The notes beneath the pieces were generated by a model that saw only the letters and a list, made by a program, of their open reading frames with translations, searched no databases and was not told the DNA's origin. Both the position numbers and the translations under genes were made by a program. From positions 78,393-142,392 of the forward strand of contig JBHOSK010000001.1 in assembly GCA_042584825.1 (NCBI GenBank): a DNA stretch of 64,000 nt, written 5' to 3'. Below are positions 13,984-58,972 of the stretch, one piece after another. Positions within the stretch are counted from its first letter, which is position 1. Each line of letters begins with the position of its first letter. The stretch comes from Candidatus Aenigmatarchaeota archaeon. Lineage in GTDB: Archaea > Aenigmatarchaeota > Aenigmatarchaeia > GW2011-AR5.

Positions 13984-14538
13984 ATGTCAGAATTAATAGT
14001 TTTTTGTAACCCCGGTCAAGTGTATAGAGGAAGATCTGAGTTAGATGTTGCAAGAGCTTATACTGAGATGGCTATTACTGAATATGATAGATTGGTTGGT
14101 TTTCGATCAGATTACAGTGACCACGCTGAAACACCCGACTTTGAATATGTTACTGGAAGAAAAGGAGGCCGCGATTTGCAATTAACCCTATTCGCTCGAC
14201 AACCAATGATAAAAGTTGGAAATGTTAATGCACCATTTACTTCATCAAGTTATCTTTTTAATCCAACCATAGAACACAGAGATTTACTATTACCAGATTT
14301 AGATATTGTTCAATTAGACGGACCTTCACAAGTCAGAGATGCGGCAGATGCAATATCAGAATTTTATCGAGATCACGGATGGACAGTTCATATATTTGAC
14401 GGATCTGTACCAAAAACAACAACAGTTAAACCAACATCTGATAGATTAGGTGGTTCTATTGAAATATATTCTCCTGATGTATTGCGAGAAATTGCTAAAG
14501 AAAGAGTAGGTTACGATAAAGATAGATTATGTTTCTAA
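13984..14538 (+). CDS. Orphan protein, Lys-poor/Arg-Asp-rich composition class
   Basis: 184-aa ORF with 6 K vs 16 R by my count. TATA-like ctttatatac lies ~22 nt upstream. First module after tRNA-Ser. No family recognised. Confidence 0.5.
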   Translation: MSELIVFCNPGQVYRGRSELDVARAYTEMAITEYDRLVGFRSDYSDHAETPDFEYVTGRKGGRDLQLTLFARQPMIKVGNVNAPFTSSSYLFNPTIEHRDLLLPDLDIVQLDGPSQVRDAADAISEFYRDHGWTVHIFDGSVPKTTTVKPTSDRLGGSIEIYSPDVLREIAKERVGYDKDRLCF

Positions 14539-14540
14539 GG

Positions 14541-14578
14541 AAGGGAGTCTCCTTTTTCAGAACAGCCCTTTCCCAGCG
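14541..14578. repeat. Degenerate copy of tRNA-Ser 3' region (att-like repeat R2)
   Basis: aagggagtctcctttttcagaacagCCCTTTCCCAGCG. The last 13 nt are identical to tRNA-Ser 13905-13917, and the leading aaggg matches tRNA 13885-13889. Confidence 0.6.
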
Positions 14579-14595
14579 TAACACACCGGTGTTAC
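14578..14595. terminator. Hairpin between convergent genes (GTAACAC-ACCG-GTGTTAC)
   Basis: 7-bp perfect stem with a 4-nt loop, immediately after repeat R2, between the stop codons of 13984-14538 (+) and 14604-14786 (-). Confidence 0.35.
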
Positions 14596-14603
14596 CGGAA
14601 ATC

Positions 14604-14786
14604 TTATCTTTTCTTCTTTTCAGATAAGCCCATGAAAAAGAACGCAATACCAATTATGAATGAAACTATCGCAAGCATAATAGGTATGAATGCATCATAG
14701 TTCAATATGCCTGGTGATGCATAGAATATCAACGCAACTATTATCATGACAATTCCAACAGAGAAATTATATGTATTTTGATCCAT
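14604..14786 (-). CDS. Small two-TM membrane protein
   Basis: 60-aa ORF with two hydrophobic helices and a KKKR tail. TATA-like aatatttatatag lies ~35 nt upstream. Confidence 0.4.
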   Translation of the reverse strand: MDQNTYNFSVGIVMIIVALIFYASPGILNYDAFIPIMLAIVSFIIGIAFFFMGLSEKKKR

Positions 14787-14834
14787 GTTATCACATCTTT
14801 ATTTTTTTAATTTTCATCTATATAAATATTAAAA

Positions 14835-14871
14835 AAGGGAGTCTCGTTCTACAAAACACCATTTCCCAGCA
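14835..14871. repeat. Degenerate copy of tRNA-Ser 3' region (att-like repeat R3)
   Basis: aagggagtctcgttctacaaaacaccaTTTCCCAGCa. It shares aagggagtctc and tttcccagc with R2 (about 75-80 percent identity over ~40 nt) and overlaps the last codons of ORF 14849-15463. Confidence 0.55.
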
Positions 14872-15463
14872 CAACATCCCGTCTAAGATTTAGTCTGGCA
14901 TATGCAAGAAAATCCTGATATTCGATACTATCTCCTGATCTCCTAATAACTTCAAAAAAACGATCACTCATCATGATCCCATCTCTCGTAGCTGTTTTTG
15001 ACCAGTCATCGTCGTCAATACCAGCAAAAGGAACAAGAAGATTACTATCCTCCATCAGAACAAAACCTGAGGTCGGGTGAAAGTATATTATACCAGATTC
15101 ACGTGATCCAGATTCGTATTCACGTACGTTTTCTTCTGTTGGACCAATTCTTCCTAATAATCTTCTAAATCTAACATGGCTAAGAGAAGTTTCACCAACT
15201 AAGTCCATCACACCCCTATCACCAACAGACGCATAAGGAACTATCACAGGAACGTACCTGGGGGCTACTACATTACGATATTTACGATCATCAGCATCAG
15301 GTGGACAAAATGCATGAGCTTTATCCCGAACTACAACCGGAGTACACTCTTCCTCTATTCCTACCCTACCACATCTTCCTATCTCGCGGTATTGGGTTTC
15401 AAATATAGTATTTAAACAACCATCTTTCTTTGCTGACATTTTTGGCCCGTGTATAAGTCTCAT
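14849..15463 (-). CDS. Orphan protein, Lys-poor/Arg-rich composition class
   Basis: ~204-aa ORF from ATG 15463. TATA-like atttataag lies ~25-30 nt upstream. No family recognised. Confidence 0.5.
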   Translation of the reverse strand: MRLIHGPKMSAKKDGCLNTIFETQYREIGRCGRVGIEEECTPVVVRDKAHAFCPPDADDRKYRNVVAPRYVPVIVPYASVGDRGVMDLVGETSLSHVRFRRLLGRIGPTEENVREYESGSRESGIIYFHPTSGFVLMEDSNLLVPFAGIDDDDWSKTATRDGIMMSDRFFEVIRRSGDSIEYQDFLAYARLNLRRDVVLGNGVL

Positions 15464-15689
15464 AAACACAATAGGGCAAAAACACTTATAAATCTTTCGA
15501 TCTGTACCTACTGTTTAGTTAAGAATTCTCCTTTTTTACCCAAAAATCAAATTTGGTTTATAAACAAAATCACAAAAATGGAGATAAATATATAAACAAG
15601 CCCCGAATTTTGCCATATATTTATTGTTACTACTTATATGTGGTGAACAATACAAATCTTTAAATACTGATCCCCGGTTCTAACTAATT

Positions 15690-16019
15690 GTGATTGATAT
15701 GACAACTGGAAAAGCATATGGATTTTTTGACTGTGATGCCCCTAAAGCGAGAGTAATGGGGGAAATGCCACATATTCGTAGCGCTGTTGGAACACCAGAT
15801 AGATTACAGCTTTATTTAACCGAAGGTATGGATCCTCAAGGTATGGGTAACAGGTATGAATTTGAAGTAAGACATCCTGGTGCAAGTAATAGAAGAGCAG
15901 CAACCGAAGCTACCATAGTTCTTAATCAAACCTATCAATCTCCTGCTTTTAGAAATGGCGGACCTTTTACAGGAGAAATTGTTTTTGAAGAAAAAGGCGA
16001 ACGTGTCTATAGAGAGTAA
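15690..16019 (+). CDS. Orphan protein, Lys-poor composition class
   Basis: 109-aa ORF (GTG 15690, or ATG 15699). TATA-like tctttaaatac lies ~30 nt upstream. Divergent from 14849-15463. Confidence 0.45.
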   Translation: MIDMTTGKAYGFFDCDAPKARVMGEMPHIRSAVGTPDRLQLYLTEGMDPQGMGNRYEFEVRHPGASNRRAATEATIVLNQTYQSPAFRNGGPFTGEIVFEEKGERVYRE

Positions 16020-16041
16020 TTTATCCAGAGTTTTTCCAGCG
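16011..16041. repeat. Third degenerate tRNA-Ser 3'-like repeat (R4), followed by a hairpin
   Basis: agagagtaatttatccagagTTTTTCCAGCG aligns to R2 with a short deletion. It is followed by hairpin AAATTACT-gaaaaaat-AGTAATTT (16045-16068). Confidence 0.4.
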
Positions 16042-16108
16042 TAGAAATTACTGAAAAAATAGTAATTTTATTCATAAATATTAAAATAAAAATAAAAAAT
16101 CAAGTGAT

Positions 16109-16387
16109 TTATCTTCTTCTTGTTGTTCTTCTTCCTCTTGTTTCTGTCCTTCTCCTAGTTCCGGTTCTTTCCCGTCTTCCGGTTTCTGTCCTTCTTTCTG
16201 TTATTCTTCTTATTTCTGATCTTGTTTCTACTGCTCTTCTTGCTTCAGCAGCTTCTCTTCTTGCTTCAGCAGATTCACGTCTTGCTTCAGCAGCTTCTCT
16301 TCTTGCGTCCGCAGCTTCTCTTCTTGCTTCAGAAATTTCTCTTTCAAATCTTCTTTCTGATCTTCTTTCTGTTCTTCTTTCTTCCAT
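16109..16387 (-). CDS. Arg/Glu-rich heptad-repeat protein (EARREAA)n; strand assignment uncertain
   Basis: MEERRTERRSERRFEREISEARREAADARREAAEARRESAEARREAAEARR... The ORF is preceded by GGGGGTGA 5 nt upstream of ATG 16387 and uses AGA/GAA/GCT codons. A mirror Leu/Ser-rich ORF is open on the + strand. Confidence 0.45.
   Translation of the reverse strand: MEERRTERRSERRFEREISEARREAADARREAAEARRESAEARREAAEARRAVETRSEIRRITERRTETGRRERTGTRRRTETRGRRTTRRR
16238..16342. repeat. 5 x 21-nt tandem repeat (tcttgcttcagcagcttctct)
   Basis: Unit starts at 16238, 16259, 16280, 16301 and 16322. It encodes the heptad EARREAA on the minus strand. Confidence 0.9.
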
Positions 16388-16628
16388 ATTTTCACCCCCT
16401 TTCATTTGAAAAGTACGATTATCTAATTTTGTTACTAAAATGACAACCCCACCCTAAAAATATGGGTTTTACATCAAATAAAGATTACATCACGATAAAA
16501 TCACAAGATTTTCGTCTATAGTTCAAAGAACACGATACATTTCCTGACATAAGCATAACATTACACGGTTATAGAAGAAATCACAAAACCGGATATTTTT
16601 ATACCACATCTTAACAATATAATATATA

Positions 16629-17165
16629 ATGAAACTTTCAGAGACCATAGTGGGAAAAACCTATACGAGAGTTTTCGTATATATTTTGGTTTTTAACATT
16701 ATTTTTGCATTCGGAGCCATCGTGTTGCACGAGGCAGGTCATTTGTATACAGGAATTTTTATTGAAGAATGTACTAGTGGAAAAATTATACTATTTGATA
16801 CAGAAGCAGATGGTCCTTATACAGAACTTGATTGTCCACCCACAGCCAATATTGTATTATTGCGCCTCAGCTCATTCTTTCTATTAGTACCAATTGGTTT
16901 AATTTTCTTTCTATTAAAGGAATTTCCTGAGAGATACTTCCTTGTTGTTATCTTAGGATTTTCAATTTACTTGAGTGCAATTGATATGAGTCGGATAGCC
17001 AATTCAGCAATAATTGAATACATAAGCATAATCATAGGGTTGGGCATATACTTTTTAGGAGAGTATCTGGTAGCACAAAAGACTTTAATTAGATTTAGAG
17101 AAAAACTATACATAACAACCCTTAGAGAGAGGCACAATTACAAAGGAGTGGATATAAAATGGTAG
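16629..17165 (+). CDS. Polytopic membrane protein with HEAGH motif (putative intramembrane metalloprotease)
   Basis: HExxH (VLHEAGHLY) at the end of the first TM helix, plus 4-5 further hydrophobic helices. Confidence 0.4.
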   Translation: MKLSETIVGKTYTRVFVYILVFNIIFAFGAIVLHEAGHLYTGIFIEECTSGKIILFDTEADGPYTELDCPPTANIVLLRLSSFFLLVPIGLIFFLLKEFPERYFLVVILGFSIYLSAIDMSRIANSAIIEYISIIIGLGIYFLGEYLVAQKTLIRFREKLYITTLRERHNYKGVDIKW

Positions 17166-17767
17166 TATTACAGACAGAACATTTCCCGTTGTTATTAATT
17201 TTATTTTTTTCAGCCATCGCAGTTTTGATAGTATTCGCCATAAAGCATTTTATATCAGACCATATTTTAAAAAAAATAGTATTAGAAAAGCCGGTCATCT
17301 TGTTAATGGGTCCTCCTAGCTCGGGAAAGAAGGAAATTGCAGAAAAGCTCGTAGAAAGGAAAATAAAAGGAAGGACATACCCATTTATAGGAAGATTCTG
17401 GACTTCTAACATGTCCATAAAAAATAAAGATTTTAATTTAGTTTGCTTTTATACAATGAAAGATCATAGCACGCTTAAAAAAGACAATATAATACTTCTT
17501 GACAAAAAACCCAAGATAATTGTTTTCGTTGCGAATATTTATTCAGATTATCATAAAATAGAAAGTCAGGGAAACATATTCAGAGAAGTCAAAAGATTCT
17601 TTCCAAAGACCCCGACAATTGTTGTTATGAATAAATACGTCAAAAGTAGAGAAAAAATGAACCACATCAAAAGAATATTTGGAAGCAGTTTGCTCACTGT
17701 TCCTGTAGATAGGAAAAAAGGAATAGTAAAATTGAGAAACGCCATGAAAAATAAAGTTATTGGTTAA
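17159..17767 (+). CDS. Membrane-anchored P-loop NTPase, divergent small-GTPase-like
   Basis: N-terminal TM. Walker A-like GPPSSGKK. VVMNKYV resembles the NKxD specificity motif. RBS aggagtg. Start overlaps the upstream stop by 7 nt. Confidence 0.45.
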   Translation: MVVLQTEHFPLLLILFFSAIAVLIVFAIKHFISDHILKKIVLEKPVILLMGPPSSGKKEIAEKLVERKIKGRTYPFIGRFWTSNMSIKNKDFNLVCFYTMKDHSTLKKDNIILLDKKPKIIVFVANIYSDYHKIESQGNIFREVKRFFPKTPTIVVMNKYVKSREKMNHIKRIFGSSLLTVPVDRKKGIVKLRNAMKNKVIG

Positions 17768-17780
17768 TAAGGAACATCCA

Positions 17781-19277
17781 CTATTTCTTAAATTTCAATC
17801 CAACAATTACACCAATAACAAGTACAATCACAACAACAGCTAACACATACATAATTGGTATTTCTTTTTCAGTTGTTTGTTCGTCAAACGCACCCACTGG
17901 TTGTTCATTAGGCGGCAGATTACTTTCAGGTGTTGTATCATATAACTGAGGTTCGTTTGTTTCTTCTTCTGGTTGCGCTTCATCTATTATCTCTTCATCA
18001 GGCCCACCAAAAGCATAAAGATGTCCATCAGAATTAGAACCTATGTAAACAGTTCCGTCTGTTCCAATAGCAGGCGAACCAATAATGCCTCCTATTAAAG
18101 GACCTTTGAATTTCCATTTTTCAGTACCATCAGGATTCAAAGCATAAAAATAACCGCTGTTAGAACCAAAATAAATTGTACCATCTGCACCTATTGCTGC
18201 TGAAGAGCTTACTCCTTCATATGCTGGTGGAGTTTCAAATTTCCATTCCAAGGTTCCATCAGGATTGAAAGCATAAAAATAAGAGTTCCACGCCCCGACA
18301 TAAATTGTTCCATCTTTTCCAATCGCAGGAACAGCGCTTATTCCATTTAAATGATATAGATCAACATAACCTCTTTGATCTTCAGGAATATCGTCAAGAT
18401 TATCTACTACTTCAACTTCATACGTCCATTCCAAGGTTCCATCAGGATTTATTGCATATACTTTGCCTTCTTTAGAACCTATATAGACCATACCATTATC
18501 CGCAACACTTGGTGAAGATTCCTGCCATGTTTCAAATGCGTAGTTCCACACGAGATCACCATCTCTATTTAATGTATTAATCAGGCCGACGACATTACCG
18601 TCCTTGATTGGTGTTGCTCCGCCTACATAAAGTTCTCCGTTTATCCCTATTGCTGTTGAAGGATGTACATGAGTTGTTTCAAATTTCCATTTTTCAGTCC
18701 CATCAGGATTAACAGCAAACAAATAACCTACTTCATCAGAAGATCCCTTTTCATAAATATATGACCCAATATAGATTGTTCCATCATCATCTATAGTAGG
18801 AGAACACCATATTGAATCACTACGTTTAACCGGAAATTTCCATTTTTCAGTCCCATCAGGATTAACAGCAAACAAATAGTTTGCTAAAGATGTAAAATAA
18901 ATCACACCGCTACTATCAATAGCAGGAGTTGAAATTATTCCATGGAAGTTTCCTGGATACGCTTCACTCTCAACAGGTTCTCCAGCATCAAATACCCATT
19001 TTTCAGTCCCATCAGGATTAACAGCATACATATCACTGTTCTGTGTTCCAACATAAATTGTTCCATCTTCTCCAATAACAGGAGAAGAATAAATTGCACT
19101 CCCAGCGTCAAATTTCCACTTAATGGTACCATCTACATGACTTGTATCGTAAGGGCTTACTCCTGTGTGTTGTACATTGCCCATCAACATTGGCCAAGCA
19201 CTATCAGCTAGCTGTGCATTAGCAACACCAACAAATAAAAAAAGTATTATAATTGATAACAAAAAACATTTTTTCAT
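17781..19277 (-). CDS. Secreted PQQ-like beta-propeller repeat protein with C-terminal TM anchor
   Basis: Signal peptide. Reiterated AVNPDGTEKWKF / DGTIY(I/V)GS blades. Thr/Glu/Pro-rich linker, then a TM helix and KFKK tail. Confidence 0.75.
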   Translation of the reverse strand: MKKCFLLSIIILFLFVGVANAQLADSAWPMLMGNVQHTGVSPYDTSHVDGTIKWKFDAGSAIYSSPVIGEDGTIYVGTQNSDMYAVNPDGTEKWVFDAGEPVESEAYPGNFHGIISTPAIDSSGVIYFTSLANYLFAVNPDGTEKWKFPVKRSDSIWCSPTIDDDGTIYIGSYIYEKGSSDEVGYLFAVNPDGTEKWKFETTHVHPSTAIGINGELYVGGATPIKDGNVVGLINTLNRDGDLVWNYAFETWQESSPSVADNGMVYIGSKEGKVYAINPDGTLEWTYEVEVVDNLDDIPEDQRGYVDLYHLNGISAVPAIGKDGTIYVGAWNSYFYAFNPDGTLEWKFETPPAYEGVSSSAAIGADGTIYFGSNSGYFYALNPDGTEKWKFKGPLIGGIIGSPAIGTDGTVYIGSNSDGHLYAFGGPDEEIIDEAQPEEETNEPQLYDTTPESNLPPNEQPVGAFDEQTTEKEIPIMYVLAVVVIVLVIGVIVGLKFKK

Positions 19278-20913: not shown

Positions 20914-21225
20914 GTGCTCAGTATAGCAGATGGCTATTTGTTTTTCAAACCAGACCCAAAATATCATAGAAGATTTTCTATTACACATATAGAGGAAACA
21001 ATGAGAAATAATGGCAATCCAGATGCAACAACAGGTAATATGTTAGGTAGTACTCCATACAGAAGATTGGATGTTAGTGGGGTTTCCAACGCATTTTCAC
21101 TATGGCGAACAATAGCAAGAAATAGAAGAGAATTGGGCATTACAGAACCGATATATGTAGACAGAAGGGTTCATAGAGGGGTTAGTGGAGCTATGACATA
21201 TTTAAAAAGCTTAGGTGCGAAATAA
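20914..21225 (+). CDS. Orphan protein, Lys-poor/Arg-rich composition class
   Basis: 103-aa ORF (GTG start). ctataaaaacctttaaat box upstream. Sits directly before rpl10e. Confidence 0.4.
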   Translation: MLSIADGYLFFKPDPKYHRRFSITHIEETMRNNGNPDATTGNMLGSTPYRRLDVSGVSNAFSLWRTIARNRRELGITEPIYVDRRVHRGVSGAMTYLKSLGAK

Positions 21226-22829: not shown

Positions 22830-23645
22830 ATGAAAACACAACAAATACTTGCTGTTCTTATAGCTATCGTAGCTGTAAGTGGAGTTGGTTTTGCTGCAAT
22901 GCCACAACACAAGGTAGATCCTCAACAATATACGGACGCTGCTGACATCCTATCAGTATTGGGTGTGGAAGTTAACGAAGATGACACAAGACCGATGCGG
23001 GACATAGCACTTTATGACGAAGAAAAACCTGCAAGCAGAATATATCCGTATTACCCTTACCCACAATACCAAAATGAAGATCTATATCCAAACGTAATTG
23101 TATTCAAAGGTGTAGCAGTAAAGGATACTGTTGAACCAGCAGCATTCATTGCATTTCAAAGAACATACCCTGCAGCAGAATATACTACAACAAACTCTCT
23201 AGTACCCCACTATGAACCTTTATACAACTACAATTATCTAATCATAAATGGTGAATTAATAGAACTAACACACAAAGACACCGATTTTGATTGGAGAACG
23301 CAAACACTTGTGGTAACATTCAGAGATGAAGCTGGCAAAGAAGCAACACTCGTAGTTAAGTTCTACAGAATAGCTGGAAGAACTGTAATGTTCATGAGCG
23401 GTGAATATGACGGATACACATTCAACATGGAAAGAATTCCATACAGAGGTCTGACAACACTAATCGAAATATTACAAAGCTACGATTACAATTACGAAGA
23501 ACCATATCCAAAACCAATCCCAATGCCATACCCAGCAGAACCCGACTATGATCAACCAGACTATGGCCATTATCGTGGATTAGGACCACTTCCAATGGAA
23601 CAAACGCAAGTAAATGAGATATTAGAAATGTTCGAAAACAGATAA
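22830..23645 (+). CDS. Secreted Tyr/Pro-rich acidic protein (hypothetical)
   Basis: Signal/anchor ILAVLIAIVAVSGVGFAA. YPYYPYPQY and PYPKPIPMPYP tracts. Lys-poor. Confidence 0.45.
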   Translation: MKTQQILAVLIAIVAVSGVGFAAMPQHKVDPQQYTDAADILSVLGVEVNEDDTRPMRDIALYDEEKPASRIYPYYPYPQYQNEDLYPNVIVFKGVAVKDTVEPAAFIAFQRTYPAAEYTTTNSLVPHYEPLYNYNYLIINGELIELTHKDTDFDWRTQTLVVTFRDEAGKEATLVVKFYRIAGRTVMFMSGEYDGYTFNMERIPYRGLTTLIEILQSYDYNYEEPYPKPIPMPYPAEPDYDQPDYGHYRGLGPLPMEQTQVNEILEMFENR

Positions 23646-27238: not shown

Positions 27239-27478
27239 ATGAATACAGGGAGACCAAGACCACGCAATGATCTAAGAATGGATCAGATACCAGAAACACC
27301 ATATTCTTTTGAAGCAGACGGTACTTATGGGAGAATAAGAGTTACTATACACAGTGCACGACAAGACCAACCAAACACAGCTCCATTTTATTTTACTGCA
27401 GGAACACAACCTAATAGTGGAACCCTTTCAGGATCAGATACTATAGGAGACGTAAAAGAAACCTTCGTCAGTAAATAG
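27239..27478 (+). CDS. Orphan protein, Lys-poor composition class, abutting rpl24e
   Basis: 79-aa ORF whose ATG directly follows the L24e stop (TAAATG). 2 K vs 7 R. Arg is mostly AGA. No family recognised. Confidence 0.45.
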   Translation: MNTGRPRPRNDLRMDQIPETPYSFEADGTYGRIRVTIHSARQDQPNTAPFYFTAGTQPNSGTLSGSDTIGDVKETFVSK

Positions 27479-30186: not shown

Positions 30187-30279
30187 ATTTAAATAACTGC
30201 AACCAAACTTATTTCTAATAAGACAAAAAACAAATAATATATTAATTAGGAAAGCTTACATATTAAGAAGGAAAACCTT

Positions 30280-30420: not shown

Positions 30421-30457
30421 ATTTTTGGTGCTAGTTTTAAGAAGATTACAGTTTCTA

Positions 30458-32040: not shown

Positions 32041-32056
32041 AAACAATATATAAATT

Positions 32057-32314: not shown

Positions 32315-32363
32315 CTAGTCTCTCTTTTTAAGTCTTTACCGCACTTATAATAATTGTGGTTTT

Positions 32364-41885: not shown

Positions 41886-42908
41886 ATGGTTGAAAAAAAT
41901 AAGGAGTATGATATTCCTTTAAAACTCCTCTCAATAAAGGACAGAAGAATAATAAAAGAACTATTCGATAATGCCAGAACCCCTTATTCTGTCGTTGCAA
42001 AAAAAGTAGGATTAAGCAAGGAAGTTGTGAACTACAGAATAAAAAAATTAATAGAAAGGGGAATAATAATCAGATTTAACACAGTTATTGATGTAAACAG
42101 GCTAGGATGGCAGATATATTTTATCAATATCCGATTAAGAAATATTAATAATATCATCGAAGAAAAAATAATTAAATCAATGATCGCCCATCCAAACGTA
42201 GCACAAGTTTTGAAATGCATGGGAAACAGTGACATTATATTGAAAGTTTTTGTCAAAGATTATCTTGATGCAAATAACATAATGAAAAATTTTGAAATAG
42301 AATTTAAACCCCATATCGATGAATATGAAATCAATCTAATTGAGAACGAATCTACAATACCACTACCTTTTTTTTATGAGCCATTCAAAATCAAAAAGCT
42401 CGTTGAAATACCCAAAAAAGACACAACACCTTTTTCTGCATCATCAACAGATCTACAGATACTAAAAAAAATATCACAAAATGCAAGATTACCAACATCA
42501 GAAATTGCAAAAGAAATGAATATGTCACGAGAACTTGTAAGACACCATTTAAAAAAACTTGAAAAAAACAAAATTATTTTAAAATACAGACCAAGCGCGT
42601 GGTCAGGAAGTAAAGCAATTGGATATAATTGGTATTTGGTAATGCTTAGATTAAATAAAATCAGCAAATTAACACACAAAAAATTACAATTCTATGCTAT
42701 AAACCACCCCAACATGACTTATTATTACAAATCAACAGGTCAGCACGATATACAATTTGAAATAAGATTAAAAACAAACGACGAACTAAATCAGGTGTTA
42801 ATGGATATAAGAAGCATACTGAAAAATGAACTCAAATCCATAGAATTGTCAATTATTTTAAAAGAATACAAATATACCTATTTTCCTGATTGTTTGTTGA
42901 ATTTTTAA
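41886..42908 (+). CDS. Tandem-duplicated Lrp/AsnC-family transcriptional regulator
   Basis: Two HTH_AsnC units (DRRIIKELFDNARTPYSVVAKKVGLSKEVVNYRIKKL; DLQILKKISQNARLPTSEIAKEMNMSRELVRHHLKKL), each followed by a RAM-like domain. Confidence 0.75.
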   Translation: MVEKNKEYDIPLKLLSIKDRRIIKELFDNARTPYSVVAKKVGLSKEVVNYRIKKLIERGIIIRFNTVIDVNRLGWQIYFINIRLRNINNIIEEKIIKSMIAHPNVAQVLKCMGNSDIILKVFVKDYLDANNIMKNFEIEFKPHIDEYEINLIENESTIPLPFFYEPFKIKKLVEIPKKDTTPFSASSTDLQILKKISQNARLPTSEIAKEMNMSRELVRHHLKKLEKNKIILKYRPSAWSGSKAIGYNWYLVMLRLNKISKLTHKKLQFYAINHPNMTYYYKSTGQHDIQFEIRLKTNDELNQVLMDIRSILKNELKSIELSIILKEYKYTYFPDCLLNF

Positions 42909-42953: not shown

Positions 42954-43709
42954 TTATCTAACGATTGCTTCGGTGAAGTCTATTGGATGTCCTCTATTAC
43001 CGTGTGGATAAAAAGTCAGTTTTCTTTGACTTCTTGATAAAGGCATATCACCAGTGAATTCAAGATCTCCAAAATGTGTTAAACCTGTTGGATCGTATTC
43101 TTCTGGTTTCTGAAATGAACCATGTTGAATTCTACCACCATCAGCAAAAAACAATAGATATGCTTGCGGGACAGTCATCGAATCTGTTGTATCGTACCTT
43201 GTATCGATATCATCAACAATATCACCCACAGCTTGTGGTAGCCCACTATCAACAGCTCTTGCAGCAAAAACCGTTTTAACAATTCTGGAAGGCCCAGTAA
43301 ATACCATACCAGCATCAATACCTTCTCCTCCTACAATTGGTAAATGTTCATTTTCTTCTGTTGGCTCTCTCAAAACCTGTTCACCGAATTCTTCTATATC
43401 TGTATGCATTTCATCTTGAGTTGGGTGCCTAAAGTGTATGATCATTTTTGCTAAAACTAATCCAGACCTATCTCTTTTTAATGAATATTGGCCGATTCCT
43501 CCTGGACCTGCGTGATAACTCCAACAATTAATAGCTTCTTTTGCGCTTTCTCCATAAACATCTTGAAGTCTTTGAAATTCTCCATTCCCTGGATATATAG
43601 CAACAGGAGCGAACATGTCAAGACCTTGTTCTGACCATGTTGATAATAACCCATAAGTAAATGTGCGTGAGTCAATTTCTCTCATTTCAATATGTACCAT
43701 ATAAATCAC
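42954..43709 (-). CDS. Orphan protein, acidic Lys-poor composition class
   Basis: 251-aa ORF. A tandemly duplicated TATA-containing 18-mer lies just upstream. Confidence 0.5.
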   Translation of the reverse strand: MIYMVHIEMREIDSRTFTYGLLSTWSEQGLDMFAPVAIYPGNGEFQRLQDVYGESAKEAINCWSYHAGPGGIGQYSLKRDRSGLVLAKMIIHFRHPTQDEMHTDIEEFGEQVLREPTEENEHLPIVGGEGIDAGMVFTGPSRIVKTVFAARAVDSGLPQAVGDIVDDIDTRYDTTDSMTVPQAYLLFFADGGRIQHGSFQKPEEYDPTGLTHFGDLEFTGDMPLSRSQRKLTFYPHGNRGHPIDFTEAIVR

Positions 43710-44245: not shown

Positions 44246-44443
44246 ATGAGTAGATTCGAAGACAGAGGTCATGGAGACAGAGGCCACGGTCACAGCGGTG
44301 GCGGTGGATTCAATAGAGGACCTCGTGAAATGCATAAAGCAACCTGTTCAGAATGTAATCAAGAATGTGAAGTTCCATTCAAACCAACAGACGGCAGGCC
44401 AATTTATTGTAGAGAATGTTTCAAGAAGAAAAGAAAATTCTAA
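44246..44443 (+). CDS. CxxC-x17-CxxC zinc-ribbon protein with Gly/His/Arg-rich N-terminus
   Basis: CSECNQECEVPFKPTDGRPIYCRECF. A strong SD-like aaggaggt lies 7 nt upstream. Confidence 0.5.
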   Translation: MSRFEDRGHGDRGHGHSGGGGFNRGPREMHKATCSECNQECEVPFKPTDGRPIYCRECFKKKRKF

Positions 44444-44489: not shown

Positions 44490-44687
44490 TTACCTTTCAT
44501 TTTCAACTGTTTGTTTATGTCTGTACAATATTTCTCCAGTATCTGGATTAATAAATTCTTCAAATGGATATGTACTAGGTCCACCAGTATCGCAGCTTGG
44601 TCTATGATATGTTCCCAATACCCAACCCTTTCTAGTATCTTGCTGTAACAAAACAGCGGTACGCATTTCATCAAAATGTAAAACCAT
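44490..44687 (-). CDS. Orphan small protein, Lys-poor composition class
   Basis: 65-aa ORF. No family recognised. Confidence 0.3.
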   Translation of the reverse strand: MVLHFDEMRTAVLLQQDTRKGWVLGTYHRPSCDTGGPSTYPFEEFINPDTGEILYRHKQTVENER

Positions 44688-48701: not shown

Positions 48702-50000
48702 TTACAAGTCCTTATCTGTTAGATTTGTTATGTCAATTCCCTTTTCTAAGAATTCGCCTCTTTTAATAAATACAGCTTTTACACTCTCAGCGCCAAAGAA
48801 TTCCTTGGCAAATTTTATAGTTTCCTTAGGATCAAATGCTGCGCAAGTAAAGATGTTAAGACATACATATCCCCAATAATTTGAAATATGTGCTACTATG
48901 GAACTCGTCTCTATCAACTGAACAACAGTTAACCCAGAAGTTTTAGCCTTTCCATGACCAAAATTCTTTACTACAGTATCACCGTATCTTTTCATTTTCA
49001 GAACATTATCACACAAGTTAGCAACAAATTCTCTCCATTTTTCTTCTGATTTTATTGTTTCTTGATTACATCCAGACAAATCTAGTACAAGTTCTTCACC
49101 ATAATACGCCTTGGATAAATGATTTTCTATATATCTTGGTAATTTTGCAGAAGCAATGTGTTTTTCTGGTGAATAATAGTGCGTTTTAATTCCACTTTCG
49201 TTATATCTCTTTTCCAATTCTTCCTTATTAAAATTAAATACGCCTTTTTTGTTTGAAGCAGCGAGAAAAGTGAATTCACCACCCTGATATGTAGGAACAT
49301 TTGACGTAAATACAGCCAGATCATCAAAAATTTCTTTTGATTGTCTGTAGTTTGAAGGCATATCATCCTCTTGAAGAAATGATGATCCTGTTTGTCTTAC
49401 AACAATACCATCATCAGATAACACACCCTCAATATCAAGATAAAATTCTCTTGTGAATAATGAAACAGCCGGTCCAATAGGATCTGGAGAATCCACAATA
49501 ATTACATCGTATTTTACACCTTCTTTTTTCGTACGTTCAATGAAAATTTTTCCATCTTCAAAATATTTATGAAGTCGTGGATCATTAAAAGCACCACCAG
49601 ATATCTTAGGCATGTGTTTTACACAAAGATCAACAACTTCTTTATCAATCTCAACAAAATCTATTCGATCAACATCATGTTTGACTATTTGTTTCAGTAT
49701 TCCACCGTCACCACCACCAATAACCAAAATTCTTTTTGGATTAGGGTGTGTGAACATAGAAAAATGGCAAAGCATTTCATGATAAAAGAATTCATCTTTT
49801 TCAGTTGTCTGGAAAATACCATCCAGAATCAACATTCTACCATAACGCTCAGTATCAACAATAACAATATCCTGTAATTTCTTCCCGTTCAGCTGACTTT
49901 GTGTCTCAATTATCTTTTCTTTTACTTTTACAGAAAGCGCTGTATCAGTATATAGGTCTTCTCTGAACCACAAATCACCATTAACAACTTCAAACCCCAT
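48702..50000 (-). CDS. speE: Spermidine synthase (aminopropyltransferase) fused to a C-terminal AdoMetDC (SpeH/SpeD)-like domain
   Basis: N-terminal: LILDGIFQTTEKDEFFYHEML, VLVIGGGDGGILKQIVKH, IVDSPDPIGPA. C-terminal ~120 aa: LDLSGC...VVQLIETSSIVAHISNYWGYVCLNIFTC matches the class-1 AdoMetDC pattern (ES..H....G....D.FTC). Confidence 0.75.
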   Translation of the reverse strand: MGFEVVNGDLWFREDLYTDTALSVKVKEKIIETQSQLNGKKLQDIVIVDTERYGRMLILDGIFQTTEKDEFFYHEMLCHFSMFTHPNPKRILVIGGGDGGILKQIVKHDVDRIDFVEIDKEVVDLCVKHMPKISGGAFNDPRLHKYFEDGKIFIERTKKEGVKYDVIIVDSPDPIGPAVSLFTREFYLDIEGVLSDDGIVVRQTGSSFLQEDDMPSNYRQSKEIFDDLAVFTSNVPTYQGGEFTFLAASNKKGVFNFNKEELEKRYNESGIKTHYYSPEKHIASAKLPRYIENHLSKAYYGEELVLDLSGCNQETIKSEEKWREFVANLCDNVLKMKRYGDTVVKNFGHGKAKTSGLTVVQLIETSSIVAHISNYWGYVCLNIFTCAAFDPKETIKFAKEFFGAESVKAVFIKRGEFLEKGIDITNLTDKDL

Positions 50001-52092: not shown

Positions 52093-52112
52093 AAAGGTTT
52101 TTAAATGGGATA
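52093..52112 (-). promoter_or_regulatory. BRE/TATA-like element, copy 1 of a 20-bp perfect direct repeat
   Basis: aaaggtttttaaatgggata. The reverse complement tatcccaTTTAAAAAccttt lies ~90 nt upstream of the dys ATG, which has its own aggtga RBS. Confidence 0.45.
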
Positions 52113-52123: not shown

Positions 52124-52810
52124 TCAAATCTCTTCGCAAAAAGAGAATCCAGGATCTTCTCTTGCCACAAGTTCTTCGTACCTCTGAAGACACTTACCGG
52201 CCATTAGATTTTGTCTTAAGGTTAACAAAGCACCTCTATTATTACTTATAAACCGCATGTCCTTTTCTAATTGTTTTTTCTGCCTTCTGGAAGGCCTGCC
52301 ACGAACTATAGTCGATGCAGGAACAATAGATTGTAAACACTGTGTAGAAACATATACTTCAGTATCAATCAATTTTCGTAAAGCAACAATTTCCCCCCTT
52401 CTTTGATCAGTTAGTGTCATATCCTGAAAACAAGGCATAGTTCTTGTGAATTCTGATATGCCCGAAGAATGCATACCAGCCTCTGGTGGTAATTCCAAAA
52501 CCCAATCCTCTGGAAAAGCAGCACATGCAAGATATCTTGAAGTATCATAAACCGAGCACCTTGATCTTTGCCTGTCAAGACTAGGACACGGAACTTTAGC
52601 CGCAGGCGTTGCATAAAAAGTTCCTTGATTAGATGGTGCAATAGTCCAGTCCTTACATAAAGTTGCGTATGTTCTATAGAAACTGCCCCCAACACCTCTC
52701 TTTTTCCTACTAAACCATGCTCTGTATATATCCCCTAATGTAACTGGTATTACATCAATATCTGTGCAGCATTTAACACAGTTCCCTGGATCACACCTGA
52801 ATTCAGACAT
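52124..52810 (-). CDS. YkgJ/UPF0153-like Cys-cluster protein, Lys-poor composition class
   Basis: CDPGNCVKCCTDIDV and PCPSLDRQRSRCSVYDTSRYLACAAFP match the CxxCC...CPfL....C.IY..RP..C motifs. Start at ATG 52810. Confidence 0.45.
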   Translation of the reverse strand: MSEFRCDPGNCVKCCTDIDVIPVTLGDIYRAWFSRKKRGVGGSFYRTYATLCKDWTIAPSNQGTFYATPAAKVPCPSLDRQRSRCSVYDTSRYLACAAFPEDWVLELPPEAGMHSSGISEFTRTMPCFQDMTLTDQRRGEIVALRKLIDTEVYVSTQCLQSIVPASTIVRGRPSRRQKKQLEKDMRFISNNRGALLTLRQNLMAGKCLQRYEELVAREDPGFSFCEEI

Positions 52811-52828: not shown

Positions 52829-52848
52829 AAAGGTTTTTAAATGGGATA
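52829..52848 (-). promoter_or_regulatory. BRE/TATA-like promoter of 52124-52810, copy 2 of the 20-bp direct repeat
   Basis: Identical 20-mer. The TATA core lies ~23 nt upstream of ATG 52810 (leaderless geometry). Confidence 0.55.
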
Positions 52849-52855
52849 TTACTCA

Positions 52856-54061
52856 CTAAAGAAGAAATAGATCGTCTTGCCTTTTATTTAATACTTCTGG
52901 TGCACCGCGTGTAACTAATACATCAAATTCTGTTGCTATTCTACCCTGTCTTCCCTCAGGATCAATTACACTTGGTTCTGAAGTAAGAACCATACCAGCT
53001 TCAAGTCTTCGGTGAGGTTTATCACCATACTTAGGCATTGGTGAAGCAGCAATAGGTCCTATACCATGAACACCCTCTGCTGACAATGTATGACCTAAAG
53101 CATGATTAAATTCTTCATAACCAGCTCCTGTTATTATATCTCTGCCTGCTGCATCAACATCAAGACCTCTCATTCCAGGAACCATTTTATCTATTGCAGC
53201 ATCTCTTGCCCTTGCTTGTAATATAAACATGTCTCTTACTCTTTCTGTTTCTCTGTCATTATTCGGATCTGCTAGGAAGTAGGTTCGTTGTAGATCTCCA
53301 GGCATATTTGTATCTGGGTCCTTTACACCAAAATCTGTGAATAAAACATAACCAGGTGTTATTACATCATCCCCTGGTTCATGATGACCCCTTACAGAAT
53401 TATTTCTAACAGCAACAATAGGACAACTGTTTCTTGCCCATGATGATTGAACACCTAAACGATCCATTTGTTCATGGAAAAATGTAGAAATTTCTCTTTC
53501 ACTTACACCTGCTCTCAAAACCTCACACTCAGCTGCATCAAATATATCATCTGTCATTCTGACAGCTTTTCTAAGTCCTTCTATTTCTTCAGGAGTTCTT
53601 ATTGCATATGCTGAATATAAAACATTCTCAGCGGCACTTGAAGAAATTCTTACATCAGAACCCCTTAAAGCGCGTCGTACGTTCAATAACATACCATAAT
53701 TAGTTACATCTAATGCTGCAGTATCTCTTGATGTAGCTATTCCCAATTTTGTAACACCAGACTTTTGTATTTCCTGTGCTATTGCACCCGACGGATCATC
53801 CGTATATCCATATTCACTGACACGATACAACTCTTTAGGAACATTACCAGCATCGTGCACATTGGCCACAACAACAGGTTTTCTTCTTCCTGGTAAAACA
53901 AGAATAGCATGAGGTGCTGATAATCCTGCACCCATTAATTGATATCTTAAATCGCCCGGATTCTCAATTTCTCTTCCCAAAAAAGCCAATCCATCTAATC
54001 CATAACGTTCAAGGTTTCTAGAAATCATGTTAAGCCGATATGCAACTCGTTGCTCATCCAT
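52856..54061 (-). CDS. M24-family metallopeptidase (Xaa-Pro aminopeptidase/creatinase-like), Lys-poor composition class
   Basis: Pita-bread motifs VLFTDFG, FNHALGHTLSAEGVHGIGP, GMVLTSEP. 10 Lys in ~400 aa. ttaaaaagg box ~25 nt upstream of ATG 54061. Confidence 0.75.
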   Translation of the reverse strand: MDEQRVAYRLNMISRNLERYGLDGLAFLGREIENPGDLRYQLMGAGLSAPHAILVLPGRRKPVVVANVHDAGNVPKELYRVSEYGYTDDPSGAIAQEIQKSGVTKLGIATSRDTAALDVTNYGMLLNVRRALRGSDVRISSSAAENVLYSAYAIRTPEEIEGLRKAVRMTDDIFDAAECEVLRAGVSEREISTFFHEQMDRLGVQSSWARNSCPIVAVRNNSVRGHHEPGDDVITPGYVLFTDFGVKDPDTNMPGDLQRTYFLADPNNDRETERVRDMFILQARARDAAIDKMVPGMRGLDVDAAGRDIITGAGYEEFNHALGHTLSAEGVHGIGPIAASPMPKYGDKPHRRLEAGMVLTSEPSVIDPEGRQGRIATEFDVLVTRGAPEVLNKRQDDLFLL

Positions 54062-55085: not shown

Positions 55086-56132
55086 CTAACGATTTGCTGC
55101 TTCAATACAAAAACTCTTAGCTTCCTCGTCCGATATGATCTTATCACATATTGTAGGATCATTTAATGTGTTAGCAATATTATGATAACAGTTTGTAGAT
55201 TCAGGACTTATTTTATCACACACATCAACATCTAATTTAGTGACAGCATAGCTAAAATAGCAGGGGGTTATTATATCGATATCTGATGTTTGTTCACATA
55301 TGGTAGCATCTGAATTTAAAATGGCTAACTTTGTAAAACAAAAACTCTCTATACAACTAGATGCATCATTCTCAAAGACAGCAATACAATCTATTTTGTA
55401 ATTAGCATCTTCAAATAATTCACACATCGAAACATCTAGTGTACTGTTCGGTTCTCTGATCTGGTAAAATATATCTTTATAGCAATTGTGTTCATTTGTA
55501 GTTGAGAATCCGAATGCAATATTAGAACAGAATTGGGGTTGACCAGAAGCTATAGCAGTTTCAAATATACATTCGTTGTATGCACGGCTATTGCGATCAG
55601 CATTCTCTGTATCAGAACTTACAACACCTTCACATAATGTAGGATCTTTTAACTCTAAAGCAAGGGTAACAAAACATTCATCCTTCAACACATTATTTTC
55701 TATATCATTACAATTGTTTTCAAGGGTATTTTTTGAAATTTCGTTTAAGCAGAAGTCCTTGTAGTGAACAGTTTCTGTCGAAGATCCACTACCTATATTC
55801 ATCATGTTAGCCATCCATGATTTTATATTAACAACTGTTGTGGCCCCAACCAGACCACGACAAGTATCTATATCATTCAGATTGATGGCAACATACACTT
55901 TACAAGAATCCATATTATATTTATATTTTTCTCCAATATATTCACAAATCGAATAATCTGTACTATCTTTTATGAAATAATTATAACAATCTAGCTCTGT
56001 TCTGTCATTAGTACTACCAGCACCTGAATCATATCCATCACACATCTCTATATCTGTTGGTGGCCATGTTGTAACAGTACACCCACTCACCGTTAGTACA
56101 CTAATTATCAACAAGAGTGGAAGATATTTCAT
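55086..56132 (-). CDS. Secreted lipobox-type Cys-rich repeat protein
   Basis: Signal LLLIISVLTVSGC. More than 30 Cys in recurring D..C(Y/F)......C patterns. Paralogous to 63706-63999. Confidence 0.55.
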   Translation of the reverse strand: MKYLPLLLIISVLTVSGCTVTTWPPTDIEMCDGYDSGAGSTNDRTELDCYNYFIKDSTDYSICEYIGEKYKYNMDSCKVYVAINLNDIDTCRGLVGATTVVNIKSWMANMMNIGSGSSTETVHYKDFCLNEISKNTLENNCNDIENNVLKDECFVTLALELKDPTLCEGVVSSDTENADRNSRAYNECIFETAIASGQPQFCSNIAFGFSTTNEHNCYKDIFYQIREPNSTLDVSMCELFEDANYKIDCIAVFENDASSCIESFCFTKLAILNSDATICEQTSDIDIITPCYFSYAVTKLDVDVCDKISPESTNCYHNIANTLNDPTICDKIISDEEAKSFCIEAANR

Positions 56133-57096: not shown

Positions 57097-57135
57097 TCTC
57101 TACTACTCTTTTGAAACATCCTTACCGATTCTATA

Positions 57136-57606: not shown

Positions 57607-57657
57607 AATACTATTTAGAATATGTAATTATAAATTCGCTTACAACGAAGTCAGAAG

Positions 57658-57993
57658 TTATTGAACAGGTTCAGCAACTGGCGCTTCATCAGCACCATAC
57701 AATGTAGCACATTTAAGAGGTAAATATTCACCAGCTTCATTCCAGCCACGTCTTGCAGGATGAGAAGGTGTTCTTACATTCATTCTTACTCCTGTAACTG
57801 CACCTGAATCATCAGTAACAACAGTACAAGGATAGAATCTTGTATCACCCCAAGTTCTCTCAAAAAACGAGAAGTCGTGTCTTCTAACATAAACAGTATC
57901 TCCACTACTAAGACCGTCATAACTAGGTAACCGAGTTGCTTGACCTAATTCCAATATTCCTGTTGCTGTTGTCCCTGTCATAATATCACTCAT
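57658..57993 (-). CDS. Orphan protein, Lys-poor composition class
   Basis: Start placed at ATG 57993 (MSDIMTG), 17+ nt downstream of gctataaaaacc. The ORF-track start 58026 would leave only 8 nt to the divergent gene. Confidence 0.4.
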   Translation of the reverse strand: MSDIMTGTTATGILELGQATRLPSYDGLSSGDTVYVRRHDFSFFERTWGDTRFYPCTVVTDDSGAVTGVRMNVRTPSHPARRGWNEAGEYLPLKCATLYGADEAPVAEPVQ

Positions 57994-58004
57994 AGATAGA
58001 GATC

Positions 58005-58020
58005 GGAAGGTTTTTATAGC
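58005..58020. promoter_or_regulatory. Shared bidirectional TATA element (ggaaggTTTTTATAgc / gcTATAAAAAccttcc)
   Basis: It lies ~17-25 nt from both ATG 57993 (-) and ATG 58035 (+). Confidence 0.4.
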
Positions 58021-58034
58021 TTTCATATTTTAGG

Positions 58035-58646
58035 ATGTTTATGAGCCACAAAAAAGCAAAACTATTCTTCAAAAAAGACAAACATTTTAAAAATATAGAC
58101 GTACCAAAGATACCAGAAAGAAACAAAAGAAATCATTTTGATACTTTGGTAACATCTATAGTATATCAACAAATATCTGGAAAAGCAGCGTCATCCATCT
58201 ACAGTAGGCTGAAAGCCTACTGCAAAGGAAGAATAACACCCGAGAAAATATCTAAAACAAGACCAGCACAACTGAAGAAACTGGGTCTTTCTCCTCAAAA
58301 AACTTCATACATAAAAGACCTGTCCAAAAAATTCCTAAACAAGGAAGTGAACACACGAAAGTTTCCGTCATTGACAAATGACGAAGTCATAGAAGAGCTC
58401 ACAAAAATAAAAGGTATCGGAGTTTGGACAGCTCAGATGTTTCTCATATTTCATTTAGGAAGAGAAGACGTTTTTCCCGTGGCTGATTTAGGAGTCCAGA
58501 AAGCCTTCACAAAACTTTTTTCCGTCTCCGACGTAAGTCAAATGGAATCCATTTCAAAGAAGTGGGAACCTTACAGAACTTACGCATCACTAATGCTTTG
58601 GAAAACTATAGACACAGTAAATCCTGACGGTGAGAGTGATTGGTGA
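58035..58646 (+). CDS. HhH-GPD DNA glycosylase (AlkA-like 3-methyladenine glycosylase II)
   Basis: HhH motif LTKIKGIGVWTAQMFLIFHLGREDVFPVADLGV. Confidence 0.8.
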   Translation: MFMSHKKAKLFFKKDKHFKNIDVPKIPERNKRNHFDTLVTSIVYQQISGKAASSIYSRLKAYCKGRITPEKISKTRPAQLKKLGLSPQKTSYIKDLSKKFLNKEVNTRKFPSLTNDEVIEELTKIKGIGVWTAQMFLIFHLGREDVFPVADLGVQKAFTKLFSVSDVSQMESISKKWEPYRTYASLMLWKTIDTVNPDGESDW

Positions 58647-58674
58647 AGAAAACTCGGGGCAGAATTTACGTATT

Positions 58675-58689
58675 TTAAAAAGGCTTTTG
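58675..58689 (+). promoter_or_regulatory. TATA-like promoter of 58703-58972
   Basis: TTAAAAAGGCTTTTG ends 14 nt before the ATG. The same 15-mer recurs at 58976-58990. Confidence 0.5.
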
Positions 58690-58702
58690 TGTCATTTCTA
58701 TC

Positions 58703-58972
58703 ATGAGCGCTTATAGAATTGATTTTTCACCGAAACCAACCTTCACATTGGGTATATTATCAGCTGCAGCCCTTCTTTCTTGCTTATCATTAGGTGTAGT
58801 AACCTATGTTTTTATCGGTGGATCTAGTAGAGATGAAAGACCACCCGCATATGAAGTTCAAAAAGCTAATGTCACAGGTAATCCAGAACCAGATGAATTT
58901 TTTATTCAGGACGGAGACACAACTTATGTGTCAATTGATGGAAGACCCACCGGAAACAGACTACCCGATTAA
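58703..58972 (+). CDS. Orphan N-terminally anchored small protein, Lys-poor composition class
   Basis: 89-aa ORF. TM FTLGILSAAALLSCLSLGVVTYVFIGG, then an acidic/Pro-rich domain. Confidence 0.45.
   Translation: MSAYRIDFSPKPTFTLGILSAAALLSCLSLGVVTYVFIGGSSRDERPPAYEVQKANVTGNPEPDEFFIQDGDTTYVSIDGRPTGNRLPD

Follow-up and report, generated by a model that had tools for sequence, protein, structure and literature searches.

DPANN archaea have tiny genomes, in which at least a third of the genes are without known function. Accessory and ORFan genes of atypical composition have reportedly been treated, by Lawrence and Ochman (1997) and Daubin and Ochman (2004), within a framework of amelioration. Other described systems that invite comparison are the archaeal integrative elements targeted to tRNA genes, which use a tyrosine recombinase and duplicate the tRNA 3′ end; integron gene cassettes; and ‘lysine deserts’, which escape lysine-directed tagging, together with the A chains of AB toxins, which favour arginine over lysine. 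Here we analyse a 64,000-nucleotide stretch (‘the window’) of a metagenome-assembled genome (MAG) of a Candidatus Aenigmatarchaeota archaeon (assembly GCA_042584825.1, contig JBHOSK010000001.1, positions 78,393 to 142,392), in which 18 lysine-poor open reading frames (ORFs), about a fifth of the genes, are dispersed among conserved housekeeping genes. Our preferred reading, tentative at a probability of roughly 0.47, is that these ORFs form a heterogeneous accessory or insertion layer with a composition of its own, being neither one system nor true orphans.

Like accessory and ORFan genes, the lysine-poor ORFs are lineage-restricted, mostly unannotated, off the core in composition, patchy among relatives and in some cases adjacent to tRNA genes, and several such genes in higher-GC relatives have a GC content at third codon positions (GC3) below that of the surrounding host genes. 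Unlike them, they contrast with the core only in amino-acid usage and in GC content at second codon positions (GC2), their silent sites being host-like; their coding positions are richer in GC, while classic ORFans are overall richer in AT; and they occur as single insertions in ribosomal-protein and RNA-polymerase operons, not as islands. The set is a variant of the known core/accessory contrast, unusual in that it shows at the protein level only and in that single genes sit wedged, with duplicated promoters, inside ribosomal and polymerase operons. We did not find a lysine/arginine split of this kind reported in the DPANN literature.

As in tRNA-targeted archaeal elements, a 13-nucleotide copy of a tRNA 3′ end lies downstream of one member (13984–14538), and again further on with two mismatches, and a second slot lies directly 3′ of a tRNA-Leu gene in three genomes, with varying contents; here, however, no integrase is present, the units are of 0.3–0.7 kb with one ORF each, and the 13-nucleotide repeat, taken by itself, is within the range of chance. 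Integron gene cassettes are likewise single-ORF units of a few hundred bases, with short bounding repeats and mostly unknown cargo, but the window holds no intI or attI and no array, its units are dispersed and carry their own promoter or ribosome-binding site, and attC-type imperfect inverted repeats are lacking, bar one hairpin module seen twice. With lysine deserts the set shares a strong depletion of lysine in a subset of proteins, arginine being kept or raised, against the mutational bias; the shift nevertheless extends beyond lysine, neither export nor a tagging system aimed at these proteins is in evidence, and the members have no common function.

Pooled amino-acid composition was compared between 17 candidates and the backbone genes (the distribution tests below used 82 genes, in 64 kb of one MAG). 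Candidate proteins contain less lysine (3.5% versus 11.9%), isoleucine (5.6% versus 9.2%) and asparagine (3.3% versus 4.7%), and more arginine (8.5% versus 4.7%), proline (6.2% versus 3.3%), glycine (8.5% versus 5.9%) and threonine (6.7% versus 4.9%); tyrosine is high and alanine, at 6.7%, is not enriched. This bears out the lysine-poor, arginine-, glycine-, proline- and threonine-rich make-up proposed in a first-pass annotation of the window, whose counts were exact for Bud32 (31 lysines and 14 arginines in 201 residues) and for the ORF at 27239 (two lysines and seven arginines, with AGA in five of the seven arginine codons). The ORF at 52856 has the 10 lysines reported, with 37 arginines in 401 residues; for the ORF at 13984, the six lysines were right and the arginines number 15 and not 16. 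The same annotation had described the codons as native, and relative synonymous codon usage is indeed essentially equal in candidates and backbone, with AGA supplying 66% and 59% of arginine codons, respectively. GC contents at the first (GC1), second and third codon positions are ~0.51, 0.44 and 0.22 in the candidates; backbone GC2 and GC3 were measured at 0.335 and 0.26 (p = 0.0025 for the lower candidate GC3), and backbone GC1 is ~0.43 as read from the per-gene table. The MAG contig, of 143,942 bp, has ~34% GC, varying from 0.29 to 0.40 per 2 kb in the window.

In 18/18 candidates the listed frame outscored the other five for native codons, three-base periodicity was strong, and no rival long ORFs were present; the longest candidates run to 184–401 amino acids in this 34% GC genome. 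TATA-like boxes at −18 to −45 were found for 9–10 of the 18 candidates, a rate similar to that of the backbone (29/63). In the boxed candidates, about half, the box lies 28–37 nucleotides 5′ of the start, and the remainder have GGTGA/GGAGG-type Shine–Dalgarno-like sites in its place. Given native-codon frames and native start signals, the listed ORFs are genuine protein-coding genes and neither assembly chimeras nor shadow ORFs; on chimeras the first-pass annotation had concluded the same, although its statement that most members have a box upstream was too generous. The exception in quality is 16109–16387, the weakest member, which is ambiguous in strand, with an ORF of similar length on the + strand. 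An out-of-frame or antisense artefact was considered and rejected: the candidate GC1/GC2/GC3 values are no permutation of those of the backbone, and the listed frames score best. NCBI annotates most candidates as hypothetical proteins; those at 16109, 32057 and 57658 were not found there under the starts tried. Pfam matches were obtained only for the CxxCxxCC (YkgJ-like) and Peptidase_M24 ORFs, the same two that had been recognized from the outset, leaving 16/18 without a match. No two candidates were paralogous in an all-against-all BLAST comparison, no sequence, signal, motif or promoter element is shared among members, and a signal peptide or transmembrane segment is present in 2/18.

A metagenome scan with RNase P p30 gave syntenic contigs from the same clade, L015 (50% GC), L025 and L016 (both 42%) and L018 (44%), and L013 (50% GC) was obtained via homolog look-up; an RpoD scan of GTDB representatives, a collection that does not include the window genome, returned one distant, non-syntenic Aenigmatarchaeota contig only. 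The GC content of the window genome is the lowest in the clade, and backbone proteins are 35–80% identical between window and relatives. Within the region shared with four syntenic relatives, 27/30 lysine-normal genes were conserved in place compared with 1/5 lysine-poor genes (Fisher p = 0.003): the lysine-poor genes are a non-conserved, variable layer, mostly unconserved in position. At the L24e/CBS seam, L025 has a ~30-bp gap with no room for a counterpart of 27239–27478, the ORF at 39062 is absent from its seam in relatives, and the short candidates, compared only with fetched relatives, have no counterpart in them.

The relatives have private, lysine-poor, Pfam-less seam ORFs of their own (L018 6866–7171 and 9264–9548; L025 570–992 and 15326–15703), with no homolog in the window or at other loci; three are arginine-rich, while the L025 slot ORF 15326–15703 has 5.6% lysine and 6.4% arginine. 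Most have GC3 below that of their neighbours, as with the L025 slot ORF (0.29 versus ~0.46). The same holds for the M24 gene of L001 (0.34, below five of six neighbours; range 0.29–0.51) and for P0097 in contig L038 (0.18 versus 0.27–0.47). In several higher-GC genomes, then, class-like genes have lower GC3 than their neighbours, as is usual for accessory DNA, so that the native codons of the window may owe as much to an AT3-rich accessory pool as to long residence.

Relative to the 42–50% GC genomes, the backbone of the window has a net gain of 1.9 to 6.5 FYMINK residues per 100 amino acids. Backbone composition is nearly unchanged in relatives despite very different GC3, which points to a lysine-rich core that is old and stable. 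A genome-wide drop in GC with a lagging subset was rejected, as the window backbone is very close in composition to the backbones of the 42–50% GC relatives. The M24 and HExxH families are arginine-rich in all relatives compared.

Two members stand directly 3′ of tRNA genes, in keeping with the tRNA adjacency noted earlier. A tRNA-Leu(UAA) gene lies between RpoD and L13 in the window, in L025 (15768–15914, − strand) and in L015 (17388–17469), with an intron of 57 nucleotides in the window, of 63 in L025 and none called in L015. The slot after it holds unrelated Pfam-less ORFs in the window and L025, and in L015 a ~390-bp gap with no recognizable gene, the longest ORF of which overlaps the tRNA. 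The other tRNA (13801–13917) is of class II and Ser(GGA)-like by eye. An insertion follows its 5′ acceptor strand (GCTGGGA); this matching strand lies ~30 nucleotides further upstream than the Rfam match, an arrangement suggestive of a non-canonical intron at about position 7/8. The last 13 nucleotides of this tRNA, CCCTTTCCCAGCG, recur 28 nucleotides past the stop codon of the fam-184 gene (13984–14538) and a third time, with two mismatches, after a small membrane ORF (14604–14786), and a hairpin-plus-core module is repeated at 14541–14578 and 14835–14871, each copy enclosing the tRNA-end repeat. No recombinase domain was found in 13001–17767.

Two further units are bounded by copies of a promoter. 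The exact 20-nucleotide repeat AAAGGTTTTTAAATGGGATA is the TATA-box region of a promoter, one copy standing before the deoxyhypusine synthase gene and the other before the YkgJ-like gene; similarity runs on imperfectly to the ATG, with the same TATA-to-ATG spacing. The exact 15-nucleotide repeat TTAAAAAGGCTTTTG is a promoter copy common to 58703–58972 and the gene of a large, probable surface protein downstream, with imperfect similarity down to the start codons and the spacing again kept. Neither repeat has a further copy in the window. A flanking repeat of at least 12 nucleotides within 90 nucleotides was found for 0/63 backbone genes, and the top-ranked repeats belong to candidates. From these arrangements, several members were probably inserted at tRNA 3′ ends, promoters and operon ends.

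By homology or Pfam domain, at least six of the 18 members are not orphans (the M24 aminopeptidase, the YkgJ-like protein, the HExxH family and three conserved families), and for these the orphan label of the first-pass annotation fails. Five families have deep conservation with invariant motifs. The fam-184 protein has at least 15 homologs at 45–59% identity; its identity to the L012 copy is 59%, against 33% for the primases of the same two genomes, and its gene neighbourhood differs in 4/4 other genomes examined, both of which speak for mobility of the family. Its lysine share, K/(K+R), is 0.29 in the window versus 0.56–0.67 in three other genomes (33–40% GC), where it is only mildly below that of the neighbours. 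The AlphaFold2 (AF2) model has a pLDDT of 92.9, with no PDB sequence match, no PDB fold match and no viral fold match. The HExxH protein (32364–33125) has homologs at 41–48% identity, and HEKTH and GEMIIEG are invariant in four aligned sequences of the family; it has no Pfam match and no PDB sequence match, and a first metagenome scan for the family was without match. Homologs of 42954–43709 are 33–38% identical, and its AF2 model (pLDDT 50.7) is too low for use; those of 41285–41767 (P0116–P0120) are 36–44% identical.

The M24 ORF has the pita-bread catalytic domain of its family, matching PF00557 with E = 1.5e-31 over profile positions 1–207 of 208, and motifs for the five metal ligands, D/D, H, E and E (FTDFG..D, HALGH, SEP and EFD; ligands assigned by inspection) are present in it and in its homologs. 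Its three close relatives, at 55–58% identity, are likewise lysine-poor, and the homolog in L001 is a lysine/arginine outlier there. The YkgJ-like protein matches PF03692, an N-terminal Cys cluster domain, only marginally (E = 3.6e-5; 24.8 bits, with the cutoff at 23). For the three conserved families of unknown function, the homologs are unannotated metagenome or MAG proteins, the sole named source being a Pacearchaeota (DPANN) archaeon, for the 42954 family; two of their contigs carry archaeal ribosomal-protein genes, and where the DNA is known the contigs have 33–42% GC. The homolog screen used alignments mixing two or three unrelated candidates as one profile; a local check of sensitivity indicated that homologs of at least ~33–40% identity are still recovered, five-sequence mixes being too weak. 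With this sensitivity, no homolog was found for 14849, 22830 or 30458, and none for 30458–30895 among 1.84 billion representative proteins.

Together, these observations lead us to favour an accessory layer made up of three kinds of gene: conserved families of unknown function (fam-184, the 42954 family and the 41285 family); clade-restricted enzymes or enzyme-like proteins (the M24 aminopeptidase, the HExxH peptidase-like protein and the YkgJ-like Cys-rich protein); and small ORFs private to the genome. The single class of the first-pass annotation was too strong a claim. Such genes would be placed into gaps between conserved housekeeping operons, either 3′ of tRNA genes, beside a duplicated downstream promoter or at an operon end behind a Shine–Dalgarno-like site, and in each mode newcomer and old gene would both remain expressed. 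Low lysine, isoleucine and asparagine, high arginine, proline, glycine and threonine, and high GC2 would be a property of the accessory pool, the ancient core having been driven lysine-rich and the pool not; the native look of third positions would come from the AT-richness of the pool at silent sites, near mutational equilibrium. Arrival by insertion, the insertion mechanism and the cause of the pool’s composition are what we infer here.

Several points weigh against this reading. The evidence base is 64 kb of one MAG, in which bimodality is non-significant, and the arginine-rich, lysine-poor character of the pool is left unexplained. Convincing flanking repeats were found in only 2–3 of the 18 members, and the 13-nucleotide tRNA-end repeat falls within the background (scores of 12–14 around backbone genes) once wider flanks and mismatches are allowed. 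By Pfam, the genes beside members in the window include neither an integrase or transposase nor any other mobile-element gene, and PHROGs (10 candidates), PADLOC (10 candidates) and IMG/VR (six queries) were all without match, so that a viral or defence origin was rejected for the candidates tested. For some members, vertical inheritance is suggested: the HExxH gene keeps its syntenic place in L013 and L015 (it is absent in L025 and L016), and the 42954 family has the same regulator neighbour in Pacearchaeota.

Old acquisition from a markedly GC-richer donor or host, with silent sites ameliorated and protein composition retained, had been suggested in the first-pass annotation and fits only in part; we consider it unlikely. 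Relative to the backbone, the candidates deviate in the order GC2 (+0.10) > GC1 (+0.08) > GC3 (−0.04), which Lawrence and Ochman’s (1997) model of amelioration is said to predict; in the clade, amino-acid composition is slower to change than GC3, and beyond the clade the nearest M24 homologs with a name come from bacteria (~30% identity). The donor itself is harder to place, as the Muto–Osawa and Lawrence–Ochman regressions give ~63% GC from a GC2 of 0.44 but ~39% from a GC1 of 0.51. Nor do the unraised alanine, the high tyrosine and the 66% share of AGA suit a GC-rich source; candidate GC3 is below the native value, not above it, and window copies have more arginine and less lysine than copies in higher-GC relatives. 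Because the homologs are unannotated or from Pacearchaeota, with some on archaeal ribosomal-protein contigs and, where known, on DNA of 33–42% GC, they give no pointer to a high-GC donor; no donor was found.

Selection to avoid lysine or prefer arginine, whether through lysine-limited translation or through escape from lysine-directed modification or proteolysis in a host, is in our view rather improbable. It would account for the direction of change in 5/5 families, in which the window copy differs from its homologs by −0.1 to −3.9 points of lysine and +1.4 to +5.4 points of arginine, even though its genome is the most GC-poor in the clade. The backbone moves oppositely, with R-to-K exceeding K-to-R replacements by 50 to 32 against L025 and by 18 to 13 against L013. 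The fam-184 contrast between genomes points the same way, and the unraised alanine argues against a plain effect of GC. However, proline, glycine, threonine, isoleucine and asparagine shift too, and per-family numbers are small. An aminopeptidase, a Cys-rich protein and assorted unknowns have no obvious joint role and no signal sequence, motif or promoter element in common, and with only 2/18 carrying a signal peptide or transmembrane segment, the effector or symbiosis gene set also raised in the first-pass annotation is neither supported nor excluded.

We hold it equally improbable that there is no class at all, the ORFs being the low tail of a broad, continuous lysine/arginine distribution chosen by eye. 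A two-component beta-binomial fit gave means of 0.32 and 0.70 with a low-component weight of 0.215, yet its advantage over one component was slight (likelihood ratio 12.9; difference in Bayesian information criterion ~0), and Silverman’s test did not reject unimodality for either K/(K+R) (p = 0.12) or the GARP index (p = 0.17). The bimodality looked for on the advice of the first-pass annotation was thus not borne out among the 82 window genes: two discrete populations are unproven, and the candidates stand out as a marked shoulder on the distribution. Three members (22830, 41285 and 32057) are borderline, that at 22830–23645 being only mildly lysine-poor (posterior 0.6), and unlisted genes (8444–10132 and 44246–44443) have similar values. 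Against a mere tail stand traits that played no part in the selection and yet track composition, namely positional non-conservation (p = 0.003), the lack of Pfam matches (16/18), the top flanking repeats and the lower GC3 (p = 0.0025); the GARP-index histogram also has a second bump, almost only of candidates.

More doubtful still is a pool, carried by this Aenigmatarchaeota clade, of single-gene cassettes that would insert at tRNA 3′ ends and promoters with target duplication, their cargo being held lysine-poor and arginine-rich by selection. Target duplication would leave both cargo and downstream housekeeping gene with a promoter, and action at a symbiont–host interface, or translation under lysine scarcity, is a possible motive for such cargo. 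The cassette-type insertion suggested at first pass as such gains partial support from the presence/absence pattern, the tRNA-Leu slot and the 2–3 repeat-bracketed units, but no integrase was found by Pfam, and a repeat scan of the window showed no attC-like family or array. That the ORFs are spurious chance or antisense frames is very improbable, since the native-codon scores, the periodicity, the lack of competing long ORFs and the homologs or Pfam domains of the long members outweigh the shortness of several ORFs (65–110 amino acids), the low complexity and equally long opposite-strand ORF of 16109–16387, and the three members missing from NCBI.

If the signature marks the variable layer, as in the accessory-layer reading that we favour, it would offer a cheap, alignment-free sorting of core from accessory genes in DPANN MAGs, even without a codon signal, and the entry points of new genes would lie 3′ of tRNAs and beside duplicated promoters; if instead the composition is selected, it would delimit a functional class of proteins within an uncultured symbiont. 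The single-gene units flanked by promoter copies merit a population-level look in any case. Coordinates are collected in Table 1.

Table 1 Lysine-poor ORFs, repeat-bounded units and tRNA-linked features of the window
Feature	Coordinates	Strand	Remarks
tRNA gene	13801–13917	+	Rfam core match 13839–13910
att-like repeats	13905–14871	+	CCCTTTCCCAGCG exact at 13905–13917 and 14566–14578; two mismatches at 14859–14871
Lysine-poor gene, fam-184	13984–14538	+	K 6, R 15; TATA-like box at −30
Lysine-poor gene	14849–15463	−	K 6, R 22; MFC2142880.1
Lysine-poor gene	15690–16019	+	NCBI start 15699, 106 amino acids
Arg/Glu-rich low-complexity ORF	16109–16387	−	34 R in 92 amino acids; 21-nucleotide tandem repeats
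Lysine-poor small gene upstream of L10e	20914–21225	+	MFC2142887.1
Secreted-looking protein	22830–23645	+	N-terminal signal-like segment; K 9, R 12
79-amino-acid ORF appended to end of L7Ae–S28e–L24e operon	27239–27478	+
tRNA-Leu(UAA) with 57-nucleotide intron, between RpoD and next ORF	30279–30421	+	by eye; ARAGORN intron option
Private ORF, RpoD / tRNA-Leu / x / L13 slot	30458–30895	+
85-amino-acid ORF after RpoN	32057–32314	+	no Pfam match
HExxH-motif protein (HEKTH ... GEMIIEG), putative metallopeptidase	32364–33125	+
68-amino-acid lysine-poor ORF, between Nre and next conserved gene	39062–39268	−	MFC2142920.1
Member of conserved 135–160-amino-acid family	41285–41767	−
Member of conserved ~245-amino-acid family	42954–43709	−
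65-amino-acid lysine-poor ORF	44490–44687	−	MFC2142930.1
Unit bounded by exact 20-nucleotide repeat AAAGGTTTTTAAATGGGATA	52093–52848		copies 52093–52112 and 52829–52848
YkgJ-like CxxCxxCC protein	52124–52810	−	Pfam PF03692
M24 (Xaa-Pro-type) metallopeptidase	52856–54061	−	Pfam PF00557
Lysine-poor ORF between GNAT and HhH-GPD genes	57658–57993	−	K 1, R 9
Unit bounded by exact 15-nucleotide repeat TTAAAAAGGCTTTTG	58675–58990		copies 58675–58689 and 58976–58990
89-amino-acid membrane-anchored ORF	58703–58972	+

The NCBI proteins of the window are MFC2142866 to MFC2142947 (locus tags ACFLQN_00595 onward). By Pfam, its backbone is a typical archaeal housekeeping set: Bud32, primase, TruB and GARS; L10e, S2 and eIF2-alpha; L7Ae–S28e–L24e; S13–S4–S11–RpoD ... 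L13–S9–RpoN; RFC, RNase P subunits, Nre, L15e, PolX and ArgRS; and a polyamine/hypusine cluster.

In most archaea L18e is expected in the slot between RpoD and L13; it is absent from this slot in the window, L025 and L015. The slot ORFs were considered as divergent L18e and rejected, with no Pfam match for 30458–30895 or for those of L025 and L015. Default ARAGORN and Rfam runs miss the intron-bearing copies of the tRNA-Leu gene. KsgA (RrnaAD) follows RpoN in all syntenic relatives, and the window has 32057–32314 in its place; this KsgA/Dim1 rRNA dimethylase is missing from the post-RpoN site (window 32040–32370 versus L013 752–1471 and L025 13490–14212) and may lie elsewhere in the genome. 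The idea that 32057–32314 is RpoK or a remnant of KsgA found no support.

The 42954 family adjoins a regulator of ~340 amino acids (41886–42908) with two winged-helix domains and an Lrp/AsnC ligand domain, and the Pacearchaeota contig L038 has the same pairing (4116–5153 and 6001–6729), which hints at a functional pair. A fused spermidine synthase/AdoMet decarboxylase gene (48702–50000, − strand) separates ArgRS from ornithine decarboxylase in the window; L025 lacks it at that site, the two neighbours abutting. It is lysine-normal yet variable. An unlisted small Gly/His/Arg-rich protein (44246–44443, + strand) has a treble-clef zinc finger (PF23477, E = 7e-19) and leans towards arginine.

Five large acidic proteins (5367–8396, 8444–10132, 17781–19277, 55086–56132 and 59008–62076; isoelectric points 4.1–4.2) are probably surface proteins. 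All are low in arginine; lysine is 1.1–2.7% in those at 5367, 8444 and 59008 and 4.6–4.9% in the other two. That at 17781–19277 is a PQQ-like beta-propeller, and the protein at 8444–10132, which has a K/(K+R) of 0.33 and was absent from the earlier list, has a 106-amino-acid segment in common with that at 5367–8396, at 68% identity.

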